Of a DNA stretch of 64,000 bases, positions 19,085 to 21,563 are shown in pieces (positions within the stretch are counted from its first letter, which is position 1; every line of letters begins with the position of its first letter). The notes under the pieces are model-generated. The model was not told where the DNA came from, made no database searches, and saw only the letters and a program-made list of their open reading frames with translations. The translations under genes were made by a program, and so were the position numbers. Source of the DNA: Anaerolineales bacterium (lineage in GTDB: Bacteria; Chloroflexota; Anaerolineae; Anaerolineales; Villigracilaceae); the NCBI GenBank assembly GCA_030583925.1, contig CP129482.1, forward strand, positions 3,634,001 to 3,698,000, written 5' to 3'.

Positions 19085-20320
19085 TTATAAACCGGCTTTC
19101 TTTTCCAAACGCGCCAATCGCCGGGCAATTTCATCGAGCCAATGCTTGCGCGCATAGGCGGGCAGGTCGGCGCGTTCCGCCATGCGCCGCGCCGATTTCG
19201 TCCACTTGAGCGCGGTTTTCACATCCCGCGCCTTATGCTCGTAATATTTCGCCAGTTCAACATGCGCGTAAATGTGACCCGCCTGCGCGGCGCGTTCCCA
19301 CAAGCGGACCGCCTCCGCGTAATCGCCGCGCCGCTTTTGCAGGATGGACAACCGCCTCACCGCGACGTGGAAATCCGCCTCGCCCATCGGCGACTCGAGT
19401 CCACGCTCGAACAGCCGCGCGGCTTGGTCGAGATGACCGAGATCCTCGAACAACTTGCCCAGCGCCACAAAGTCCAAGCCATGCTGAACCGCGCCGTCGT
19501 ACGGATTCTCCAACATGTCGTTCATGTGCGCGAGCAACGCCGCCATCGCGGTCACATCCATCGCGTTGTGATAAAAGACTCCCGCCAATGGACGCGCGTC
19601 GCCGGTGCGTAAATAATCAAAATACAGCCACGGGATTTCATAGCCCGGCACTTCCTCGCTTGAACGCTTGAACTCGAGGATGTGCTCCTCCAAGAATTTC
19701 AGCGCGCGTGATTCGAGCCGGTCGCGCCACAGCCGCCGCGCCAGCGGCAGAAGATCGACATGGGAAAAGGCAGAAAATGGGTTCGGCGTATCGTGAATCG
19801 TGTATCGCGTTTTCAACAGCGGCGCATCGAATGCCTTGCCGTTGAACGTGACCAGCGCTTCGCACGGCGCAAGGAAATCCGCCAGCCCTTCGAGGAGCGC
19901 GGGCTCTTCAGCGGGGTCGCGCATGAAAAACTGCTTCAACACGAACTGATCTTCGATGAAGCGCGCCGCGCCAACGAGGAACGCGTACGTGCCAGTGCCG
20001 CCGGAAAGACCGGAAGTTTCCGTGTCGAGAAAGGCAAATTTTGAAACTGGGAGACTGGAGACTTTGGGGTCGTTCGCCCATTCGGAAATTAATGAAAGAG
20101 GAAAAGAAGAAAGAAGAGATGAGGAGCCGTAAAGGTATTGCTGTGAGAAGGTCTGTTCGGCGATAAACACCTCCCCGCGACGGGTGGCGAGAAAACTCCC
20201 CGCGAGGACCGATTCGATGGCGGGCGAATCAGGCTTCCCCTGCGAAAGAGGCGGGATGCCCTTTGTGACTCCGAGGGATTTTAATCTGTCTGCCAGCGTA
20301 GGTTTGGCGTCTGAATCCAT
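19085..20320 (-). CDS. YprB-like RNase H-fold exonuclease with TPR C-terminus
   Basis: FLDTETSGL, TFNGKAFD, HVDL, YHNAMDV; helical repeats with AHVELAKYYEH. Confidence 0.8.
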   Translation of the reverse strand: MDSDAKPTLADRLKSLGVTKGIPPLSQGKPDSPAIESVLAGSFLATRRGEVFIAEQTFSQQYLYGSSSLLSSFPLSLISEWANDPKVSSLPVSKFAFLDTETSGLSGGTGTYAFLVGAARFIEDQFVLKQFFMRDPAEEPALLEGLADFLAPCEALVTFNGKAFDAPLLKTRYTIHDTPNPFSAFSHVDLLPLARRLWRDRLESRALKFLEEHILEFKRSSEEVPGYEIPWLYFDYLRTGDARPLAGVFYHNAMDVTAMAALLAHMNDMLENPYDGAVQHGLDFVALGKLFEDLGHLDQAARLFERGLESPMGEADFHVAVRRLSILQKRRGDYAEAVRLWERAAQAGHIYAHVELAKYYEHKARDVKTALKWTKSARRMAERADLPAYARKHWLDEIARRLARLEKKAGL

Positions 20321-20394: not shown

Positions 20395-21048
20395 TTAATC
20401 GTTCAACCACGCAAGGCTCTCGTATTCAGCCTTCGGTATGGCAATGACGAACAACCTGCCCCAACTTAGTTCACCGTCTTTTTCAATGCAGGTTTGGAAG
20501 GTCACGTTTCCGTCGCTGAAGAATACGCGCTTGAAGGTTTGCTCCACCGAGAGGACTTTATCCGTATCCAGGTCGCGGAAGGAACTATACGTGCTATGCG
20601 GCTGTAAAGCCTGATAACGCAGGATTTCGTACACCACAAAAATTTCTACCTTGCCGTCGCCATAAACGAGGCGGACCTCATCCCCCACTTTCAAATCAAA
20701 AAAGGAAGCGCCGGCAAGGTAGTTGTGGGCAAGCAAACCGGTCGTTCCATACCGGCTTGCCATGCGGAATTGGGTAATTGCCTCTGGCTCTTCGGACAAA
20801 AATGATCCGTGACCATACGGCTGTTGAACGATGGGCAGGGCAAGAACGTTCGATACATAAACTCCTCGTACGAGATCCGCGCGTCCATCTTGTACAGAGG
20901 TTGAAAATTCCGAAAAAGTGGGAAAGACGGTCGCTTCGGCGAGCTCCATTGCCAGAACTGTGGAAGGGTTCAGAACAACGGAAGCAAACAGAGCCAGCAG
21001 GATACCGATGATAAAGATCGTTCGGGAGGTTAATTTTTTGAGCGCCAT
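20395..21048 (-). CDS. Sortase-like membrane-anchored protein
   Basis: N-terminal signal/anchor; LAHN, FQTC and GRLFV give the His-Cys-Arg order of sortases; AGGAG SD. Confidence 0.65.
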   Translation of the reverse strand: MALKKLTSRTIFIIGILLALFASVVLNPSTVLAMELAEATVFPTFSEFSTSVQDGRADLVRGVYVSNVLALPIVQQPYGHGSFLSEEPEAITQFRMASRYGTTGLLAHNYLAGASFFDLKVGDEVRLVYGDGKVEIFVVYEILRYQALQPHSTYSSFRDLDTDKVLSVEQTFKRVFFSDGNVTFQTCIEKDGELSWGRLFVIAIPKAEYESLAWLND

Positions 21049-21101
21049 TTGTTTCTCCTTGATTCGACAAAGGCGCTCTAACCCATCTTGAAGATGGAAT
21101 C

Positions 21102-21196
21102 GTCTTCGGCAACCTGGCTATCGTGATCCCGCGAGGCGGGATGGTAGATCCATGGTTTTGCGTCCCCGCCTTTCGACGGGTTTGCCTTTATCGAAC
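21102..21196 (-). ncRNA. GEMM-I (c-di-GMP-I class) riboswitch, gene-proximal copy, G at the specificity position
   Basis: Minus strand GAUAAAGGCAAACCCGUCGAAAGGCGGGGACGCAAAACCAUGGAUCUAC...GAUAGCCAGGUUGCCGAAG matches the GEMM-I consensus (GAAA tetraloop, GACGCAAA junction). Confidence 0.9.
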
Positions 21197-21215
21197 ATGC
21201 TATGATGTACCCAAT

Positions 21216-21240
21216 AAAAAAGCCCGACACAATGTCAGGC
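21216..21240 (-). terminator. Intrinsic terminator between the two riboswitches
   Basis: Minus strand GCCTGACA-ttg-TGTCGGGC-TTTTTT. Confidence 0.85.
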
Positions 21241-21261
21241 GCCAAAAATCAAACAGACGTT

Positions 21262-21356
21262 ATCTTCGGCAACCTGGCTATCGTGATCCCGCGAGGCGAG
21301 ATGGTAGATCCATGGCTTTGCGTCCCCGCCTTTCGACGGGTTTGCTCTTATCGGAT
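21262..21356 (-). ncRNA. GEMM-I riboswitch, promoter-proximal copy, A at the specificity position (putative 3',3'-cGAMP type)
   Basis: GAUAAGAGCAAACCCGUCGAAAGGCGGGGACGCAAAGCCAUGGAUCUAC...GAUAGCCAGGUUGCCGAAG; repeats with a 160-bp period; TATACT box just upstream at 21369-21374. Confidence 0.9.
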
Positions 21357-21563
21357 GTTGTTGAACGCAGTATAGCAAAAGGTTACAGGTTTTGGCTTTG
21401 CATTTTAGTTATATCGATTTACAGGAATGCAATGCCTCATCGCCCAAAAAATGCCACAACCAGGTTTATTGGGGAACGTGAAACCAATACCCATACAAAA
21501 CCTCCGCAAAATCGTCACATTTTGCAGTATCAACTGTTCTATAATCGTGCAACCTGCAACCCC

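Follow-up and report, generated by a model that had tools for sequence, protein, structure and literature searches.

Among riboswitches built on the GEMM-I scaffold, the base at position 20 of the aptamer contacts the ligand. In the GEMM-Ib riboswitches of Geobacter, it decides between 3′,3′-cGAMP and c-di-GMP, and A20G and G20A swaps exchange selectivity (PMC6456294). An A at this position is nevertheless insufficient for cGAMP selectivity on its own. The G20A variant of Vc2 binds c-di-GMP at 53 nM and cGAMP at 120 nM, and Cbe 1-2 from Clostridium beijerinckii, which carries a natural A20, binds the same ligands at 30 nM and 463 nM, respectively; both RNAs are bispecific and hold c-di-GMP through a protonated A20 (PMC6140456). 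The pocket of a further member, Gs1761, reads A12-U13-A14 (PMC7288161). With regard to expression platforms, Cd1 exemplifies a design in which the aptamer and the terminator coexist and the antiterminator is assembled from the 3′ strand of the aptamer and the 5′ strand of the terminator (PMC9262584). Tandem c-di-GMP-I riboswitches are common: the accessible parts of a 2022 catalogue report 347 doublets and 12 triplets, including a characterized triplet from Bacillus thuringiensis, and the logic-gate table in those parts holds no c-di-GMP/c-AMP-GMP pair (PMC9481103). Tandem c-di-GMP-I riboswitches and A20 variants are thus each already known, and within the accessible portions of the literature, no description of a cGAMP/c-di-GMP two-input NOR gate was found.

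Here we describe a tandem GEMM-I leader that pairs an A20 aptamer with a G20 aptamer. The window is a 64,000-nucleotide stretch from the genome of an Anaerolineales bacterium, a single contig of 3.97 Mb, and all coordinates refer to this window unless another genome is named. An earlier note on the window had read the leader as a natural two-input gate for cGAMP and c-di-GMP. We find that the anatomy is genuine, that it is conserved, and that it holds more elements than that note described, and that the ligand of the upstream copy calls for a more guarded reading.

Two GEMM-I Aptamers in One Leader

On the minus strand, Infernal detects two GEMM-I aptamers over their full length, at 21355–21264 and 21195–21104. 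Their starts lie exactly 160 nt apart, the spacing that the earlier note had given. The features are as follows:

21264–21355, minus strand: aptamer 1, the upstream GEMM-I aptamer of A20 type (RF03167, RF01051, and our own covariance model R1)
21346, minus strand: A of aptamer 1 at the ligand-contact position equivalent to G20 of Vc2 (cmscan and pairwise alignment)
21104–21195, minus strand: aptamer 2, the downstream GEMM-I aptamer with canonical G20/A47/C92 (RF03167, RF01051, and R1)
21186, minus strand: G20 of aptamer 2 (sequence and alignment)

Aptamers 1 and 2 score 77.4 and 81.7 bits against RF01051 (model positions 1–87; threshold 35 bits) and 69.3 and 76.2 bits against RF03167 in cmscan, above the threshold of 59 bits. 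R1, which was built from 65 aptamers and with which 113 loci were searched, assigns them 109 and 114 bits; L-numbers used below are labels of loci in this comparison set. A chance origin of the tandem is excluded because the E-values run from 1e-14 to 1e-16 and the same tandem recurs in about 40 other species. P1, the hairpin capped by a GAAA tetraloop, the second long hairpin, and the three-way junction are all present in the cmscan alignments and in the RNAalifold consensus of the 65 aptamers.

Pairwise alignment of the two copies reveals just five differences in 92 nt (positions 12, 19, 20, 50, and 67). Aptamer 1 reads A18 G19 A20 G21, with A20 at 21346, and aptamer 2 reads A18 A19 G20 G21, with G20 at 21186. 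This register is fixed by the G21–C46 and C22–G45 pairs in the cmscan model alignment, with which the pairwise alignment agrees, and both positions coincide exactly with those singled out before. A47 and C92 are kept in both copies, so that aptamer 2 displays the canonical c-di-GMP-I contacts G20/A47/C92 and aptamer 1 departs from them as A20/A47/C92. The combination of A20 with a retained C92, the latter inside GUUGCCGAAG, is the one expected of GEMM-Ib. A shifted register, in which G19 stands in for G20 in aptamers with an AGA triplet, was rejected as a general account, given that position 19 may be G, A, U, or C in the A20 aptamers of the genus.

The top-scoring family in cmscan, c-di-GMP-I-GGC (RF03167), was considered and rejected as an assignment, since position 47 is A rather than G and RF01051 is also far above its threshold. 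Both aptamers read GACGC-A-AA where the RF03167 consensus reads GACGC-G-AA, the cmscan match line is blank at that column, and A occupies position 47 in 65 of 65 aligned relatives. The name GGC presumably refers to positions 20, 47, and 92. With A at the distinguishing G position of RF03167, both copies are therefore ordinary c-di-GMP-I scaffolds. As an aside for annotation, Rfam with clan competition labels both as c-di-GMP-I-GGC, and an automated pipeline would mislabel them.

A Transcriptional Platform Behind Aptamer 1

The elements that surround the first unit are as follows:

21369–21377, minus strand: putative extended −10 element TGCTATACT, from sequence; the transcript start would lie a few nucleotides before P1 of aptamer 1
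21236–21249, minus strand: switching strand AUUUUUGGCGCCUG, complementary to 21276–21262 (3′ end of aptamer 1)
21216–21240, minus strand: intrinsic terminator of unit 1, GCCUGACA-UUG-UGUCGGGC plus U6, from a terminator scan

The −10 element remains a putative promoter element read from the sequence. A generic promoter scan did not list TGCTATACT, and orthologous leaders L017, L084, and L099 carry an equivalent, TGCTATAAT, at the same distance. Some 50–80 nt further upstream of the −10, orthologous leaders share a conserved element resembling CCTGTAA...TTACTGAAATGMAAG, which falls at about 21395–21425 on the minus strand of the window and may be a protein-binding site.

The earlier note had placed an intrinsic terminator after the first aptamer and had taken this unit to act on transcription, and both points hold. 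The stem spans 21240–21222 and is followed by a run of six U to 21216; a terminator occupies the equivalent position in nearly all tandem loci scored. It does not overlap P1. The switching strand can pair with the aptamer's 3′ end and shares nucleotides with the terminator 5′ arm, which makes it the predicted partner in an antiterminator. The complementary stretch of the aptamer runs from the 3′ strand of P2 through the 3′ strand of P1, and RNAduplex gives the duplex −18.2 kcal/mol versus −7.9 for shuffled sequences (z −3.9). Of the 32 orthologous loci that were scored, most show this antiterminator complementarity, mostly at −15 to −25 kcal/mol, with a mean z of −3.3 against shuffles.

Aptamer and terminator thus occupy separate segments, and the antiterminator draws on the 3′ strand of the former and the 5′ strand of the latter. 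This is the Cd1 design, in which a coexisting aptamer and terminator compete with an antiterminator, and it predicts that ligand promotes termination. In the ligand-free RNA, the aptamer 3′ end would pair with the switching strand and terminator 5′ arm, and RNA polymerase would read through; with ligand, the aptamer would keep its own 3′ end, the terminator would form, and transcription would stop. Unit 1 consequently looks like an OFF switch, a polarity read from the pairing pattern. The opposite polarity, an ON switch, was considered and rejected, as the terminator lies off P1 and the conserved complementarity joins the aptamer 3′ end to the terminator 5′ arm.

A Translational Platform Behind Aptamer 2

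No U-tract follows the second aptamer, as the earlier note had observed; a GGAG and the ATG come next. The conserved elements between the aptamer and the third codon are as follows:

21184–21196, minus strand: strand a, GUUCGAUAAAGGC, the 5′ strand of aptamer 2 (5′ arm of P1 plus pocket A18–G21), which pairs with element b
21062–21074, minus strand: element b, GCCUUUGUCGAAU, an anti-P1/anti-pocket sequence just upstream of the Shine-Dalgarno sequence, complementary to strand a
21067–21078, minus strand: 5′ arm of helix H, GAGCGCCUUUGU, from the MFE fold and covariation
21055–21058, minus strand: Shine-Dalgarno sequence GGAG in the loop of helix H, from sequence and conserved in orthologous leaders
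21040–21052, minus strand: 3′ arm of helix H, ACAAAUGGCGCUC, which includes the AUG (21048–21046) and codons 2–3, from the fold and covariation

Strand a and element b form a duplex of −19.5 kcal/mol (z −7.2) in the window, with a mean z of −5.3 across 31 loci. A complement of 12–13 bp is present in all 31, with 97.2% of cells paired versus at most 57% when the elements are slid against each other. Formal covariation of this duplex is nil in the 31-locus alignment, where the 5′ strand is invariant and the pairing therefore cannot covary; the sole compensatory case is L048, in which AGG pairs with GCCCUUGUC.

Helix H, by comparison, does covary. It pairs GAGCGCC(UUUGU) with (ACAAA)UGGCGCUC across the AUG, at −15.6 kcal/mol here and a mean z of −3.7 over the 31 loci. 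Compensatory changes occur in four of nine pairs, a score reached by none of 500 shuffles, and the 5′ arm and codon 2 change together, GCG appearing with CGC and ACA with UGU. Codons 2–3 of the sortase gene (21040–21048; alignment columns 185–193) are in this respect constrained by RNA pairing, with codon 2 being Ala-GCG or Thr-ACA/ACG.

Since the 5′ arm of H overlaps element b, H and the a:b duplex are mutually exclusive. Without ligand, strand a would pair with b next to the Shine-Dalgarno sequence, which would keep H from forming and leave the start codon accessible. Once c-di-GMP is bound, the 5′ strand would be locked in P1 and the pocket, b would be released, and H would form and bury the AUG. 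A ligand that locks strand a in this way frees b for sequestration of the start codon, and unit 2 therefore also looks like an OFF switch, again as a predicted polarity. The translational role that the earlier note had considered possible for this unit is supported, with the difference that the switching elements are the anti-P1 strand and the start-codon-sequestering helix. The hairpin that the note had seen before the Shine-Dalgarno sequence, at about 21095–21081, was rejected as the platform because it is a variable spacer hairpin and the conserved elements are b and H. Each aptamer is accordingly followed by a platform of its own, a terminator after aptamer 1 and b/H after aptamer 2, in about 40 species.

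The Regulated Gene and Its Surroundings

20395–21048, minus strand: putative YLP-type sortase gene, encoding a membrane-anchored protein of 217 aa (NCBIfam NF053836)

The encoded protein matches NCBIfam NF053836 (sortase_YLP) with 221 bits, against a cut-off of 125 bits, and matches the Pfam Sortase family weakly. Orthologues with 46–80% identity lie behind the same leader in relatives, several of whose genomes come from activated-sludge samples. A gene for an MFS_2 transporter is transcribed divergently from the sortase gene. On the other side, 75 nt downstream of it on the minus strand, a 411-aa open reading frame (19085–20320) encodes an RNase_H_2-superfamily domain and TPR repeats and received no NCBIfam name.

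Only one other GEMM-I RNA was found in this genome. It is a single G20 aptamer of 39 bits (L003, G000:C1:3015830–3015925) upstream of a gene that, from inspection of its translation by eye, encodes a probable secreted S8 (subtilisin-like) protease. Aptamer 1 is hence the one A20 aptamer of its genome.

Concerted Evolution of the Aptamer Bodies

Across 60 scanned relatives, GEMM-I pairs with a spacing of about 165 nt turned out to be very frequent in the genus. Upstream of sortase orthologues, 41 distinct tandem leaders were collected from about 40 species of one Anaerolineales genus; more distant relatives carry a single G20 aptamer before the same gene. The downstream aptamer of the sortase module has G20 in every resolved case. 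Its upstream partner has A in 24 of 39 species, G in 14, and C in one, with one further instance of U. At upstream positions 18–20, 18 cases have the triplet AGA, about six have AAA, AUA, or ACA, and 14 have AAG or AUG, with single cases of AUC and AAU. Mapped onto the sortase protein tree, upstream position 20 has changed at least nine times among the 39 species and its downstream counterpart not once; the sister species represented by L011 (G) and L015 (A) differ at the upstream site. Every other nucleotide of the upstream pocket is strictly conserved.

Divergence was compared from position 21 to the end of P1. Within a locus, the two aptamers diverge by 0.14 on average and by 0.024 in the window, versus 0.21–0.23 between orthologous copies of different species. 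An upstream copy resembles the upstream copies of other loci no more than it resembles their downstream copies, and 24 of 64 aptamers have their own partner in the locus as nearest relative. The bodies have therefore been homogenized by recombination, and the origin by duplication suggested earlier is supported, both by the 97.6% identity of the bodies at this locus and by their concerted evolution across the genus. The difference at positions 19 and 20 has persisted through this homogenization. These positions sit about 8 nt inside the repeat, and escape from gene conversion may be an alternative to selection as the cause.

Collapsed or rearranged leaders are evidence of recombination between the two repeats. 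In L084, the only aptamer has a P1 of upstream type and is joined directly to the translational platform. The only aptamer of L099 is of A20 type, and the b element of the platform joined to it has ceased to match it. L017 has an A20 aptamer with its terminator but has lost the downstream aptamer.

Other genes of the genus carry related leaders. A second tandem GEMM-I leader, absent from the genome studied here, lies upstream of ruvB in same-genus relatives (L086, at G017:C1:4167600–4169300, and L070, L074, L082, L089–L092, L094, L095, and L103). In L086, the one leader inspected closely, a terminator follows the downstream aptamer. Among the position-20 pairs of these tandems are A20/A20 (five loci, AAA/AAA), A20/G20, and G20/C20. 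It is unusual for a cyclic-dinucleotide riboswitch to precede the gene of a Holliday-junction helicase. Single A20 aptamers also precede Tad-like genes in relatives, with AUA, the same triplet as in Gs1761.

Search for a cGAMP Synthase

A Hypr-type GGDEF protein or another cGAMP synthase had been predicted to be encoded elsewhere in this genome, a prediction to which our searches lend no support. The genome encodes ten GGDEF domains, about seven of them with an intact GG[DE]EF motif; at the Hypr position, nine have Asp and one, a degenerate domain, has Asn, with no Ser or Thr among the ten. A search for SMODS CD-NTases returned no hit in this genome or in any of 41 from the genus. A DncV-like search of the genome also returned nothing, a result that carries no information because its control was silent. 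At the DNA level, the pattern N-D-x-x-G-H-x-x-G-[S/T] retrieved nothing real from the 41 genomes, and its Asp version recovers six of the seven matching domains in the genome studied here. Two candidates for the Hypr pattern, L065 and L066, were rejected, one containing a stop codon and the other not being a GGDEF domain. Three further near-complete genomes contributed 27 GGDEF domains, every one with Asp instead of the Hypr Ser/Thr. Neither enzyme type associated with hosts of GEMM-Ib, a Hypr GGDEF protein with Ser/Thr348 or a DncV/CD-NTase, was thus recovered by these searches.

What Aptamer 1 Reads

The reading that we prefer, at about even chances of being right, is that the leader is a two-stage c-di-GMP repressor in which both units sense c-di-GMP. 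The anatomy and its conservation, the complementarities, the covariation of helix H, and the lack of Hypr-type GGDEF signatures and SMODS matches are observed; the two polarities and the ligand of aptamer 1 are inferred. c-di-GMP is the most likely input to both units because A20 accepts c-di-GMP, the host has c-di-GMP cyclases, and no cGAMP synthase is recognizable in it. The leader would then comprise two complete, independently acting GEMM-I riboswitches in series. The A20 pocket would take c-di-GMP, via the protonated A, as well as cGAMP and would serve as a lower-affinity, faster-exchanging sensor on transcription, with the G20 copy as a tight c-di-GMP sensor on translation; acting together, the two would afford a two-stage, steeper shut-off of the sortase as c-di-GMP rises. 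The flips between A and G, and rarely C or U, at upstream position 20 among close relatives are more in keeping with tuning or tolerance than with a second-ligand channel that is fixed. Several observations pull the other way. The A20 majority in the upstream copy despite repeated homogenization hints at selection for the difference, the A20 aptamers before ruvB and Tad-like genes resemble a separate regulon, the benefit of weaker affinity in a kinetically controlled terminator switch is not obvious, and the synthase searches bear on known enzyme types, so that another kind may exist.

Of the two-input gate proposed in the earlier note, the succession of a transcriptional and a translational platform stands; its cGAMP input finds no support here, with no synthase found and A20 not sufficient for selectivity by itself. 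Restated with the polarities predicted here, the proposal becomes a NOR gate, in which the A20 aptamer senses 3′,3′-cGAMP and terminates transcription, the G20 aptamer senses c-di-GMP and blocks translation, and the sortase is expressed only with both messengers low, the synthase being of a kind unrecognized in Chloroflexota. We regard this as possible but doubtful. Aptamer 1 does have A at the specificity position with C92 and A47 retained, swaps at this position exchange selectivity in Geobacter (PMC6456294), and most species keep A20 in the face of concerted evolution. A20 aptamers also occur in at least three gene contexts in the genus, A20/A20 tandems included, the AUA variant of the pocket (L027, L031, L067, and L077) equals A12-U13-A14 of Gs1761 (PMC7288161), and no cGAMP/c-di-GMP gate figures in the accessible part of the catalogue's logic-gate table (PMC9481103). 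Against this stand the negative searches of genome and genus for Hypr GGDEF proteins and SMODS CD-NTases, the bispecificity of A20 pockets (PMC6140456), the nine or more flips among relatives as close as L011 and L015, and the solitary A20 aptamer of the genome itself. The broader claim, that the genus runs two cyclic-dinucleotide channels through near-identical GEMM-I scaffolds, strikes us as unlikely. It would have the A20 aptamers upstream of sortase, ruvB, and Tad-like genes read 3′,3′-cGAMP made by a synthase that is neither a Hypr GGDEF protein nor a CD-NTase, and would make the sortase leader a cGAMP/c-di-GMP NOR gate.

At the opposite extreme, upstream position 20 might be nearly neutral. 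Both copies would sense c-di-GMP, the A20/G20 difference would be without regulatory meaning, and the variation among A, G, C, and U would be drift tolerated by a kinetically driven terminator switch; downstream G20 would be held fixed by two constraints at once, the pocket and the pairing with element b. The lability of the upstream site, rare C and U included, agrees with this account, as do the nearly invariant downstream 5′ strand that pairs with b (divergence 0.036) and the ruvB tandems, in which both units appear to have terminators and both positions vary (A, G, and C). Gene conversion, moreover, may not reach positions 19 and 20. Drift is harder to reconcile with the over-representation of A, with the frequent company of G19 (AGA in 18) in the A20 aptamers of sortase leaders, which suggests a selected state, and with the strict conservation of the remaining upstream pocket, and we consider it distinctly improbable. 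A last account has aptamer 1 sense another adenine-containing dinucleotide, such as a linear turnover product of pApG type or another mixed cyclic compound, the pair being a gate for that compound and c-di-GMP. An A20 pocket with C92 in a genome where no known cGAMP synthase was found speaks for it indirectly. No precedent for such a ligand among GEMM-I RNAs was found in the literature consulted, and no feature of the sequence sets this account apart from the others, which leaves it with a very small chance of being correct.

Tandem riboswitches are the simplest natural logic or dose-shaping devices, and this lineage supplies about 40 natural replicates of one tandem pair, in which recombination keeps the sensors near-identical and yet they usually differ at the single base that reads the ligand. 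Under the preferred reading, with c-di-GMP as the ligand of the A20 copy, the leader would be a clear natural case of affinity tuning, combining transcriptional and translational control on one messenger. If the A20 copy instead reads cGAMP, the leader would represent a new two-messenger gate and imply an unknown Chloroflexota cGAMP synthase. The pairing also serves as a warning against calling cGAMP riboswitches from A20 alone, and the putative YLP-type sortase as target would link cyclic-dinucleotide signaling to cell-surface protein anchoring in filamentous Chloroflexota.

Comparison with Known Systems

The GEMM-Ib riboswitches of Geobacter, including the tandem pairs before omcAHG (GSU2885), share with aptamer 1 the GEMM-I scaffold, A20, and a retained C92, and share with the sortase leader the tandem arrangement in one leader and the intrinsic terminators. 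They differ in that the Geobacter tandems are A20/A20 ON switches, whereas the sortase leader is A20/G20 with both units predicted to be OFF and one of them translational. Geobacter genomes, furthermore, encode the Hypr GGDEF protein GacA, of which no counterpart was found in the present genome (PMC6456294). Vc2 G20A and Cbe 1-2 resemble aptamer 1 in that their pocket has A20 and the c-di-GMP-I aptamer is canonical in other respects; they were studied as isolated aptamers, whereas aptamer 1 is the conserved partner of a G20 copy (PMC6140456). Cd1 of Clostridioides difficile, a transcriptional OFF switch, has the same antiterminator/terminator arrangement as unit 1 but consists of a single G20 aptamer before flagellar genes rather than a tandem (PMC9262584).

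In the accessible parts of the 2022 catalogue, the c-di-GMP-I tandems are, like the sortase leader, two full riboswitches of the same class in series, each with its own expression platform, from which a sharper response is expected. The tandems there are not divided by position 20, and the sortase leader differs in joining a transcriptional to a translational unit (PMC9481103). The same parts describe clusters in Desulfobacca acetoxidans in which near-identical GEMM-I aptamers of one genome differ at the same pocket nucleotide as the two copies reported here, the A variant having gained affinity for cGAMP and still binding c-di-GMP (PMC9481103). As presented there, the A and G variants of Desulfobacca acetoxidans belong to different clusters, each with an AdoCbl riboswitch as partner, and an ON polarity is predicted for them, unlike the A20/G20 pair of the sortase leader (PMC9481103).
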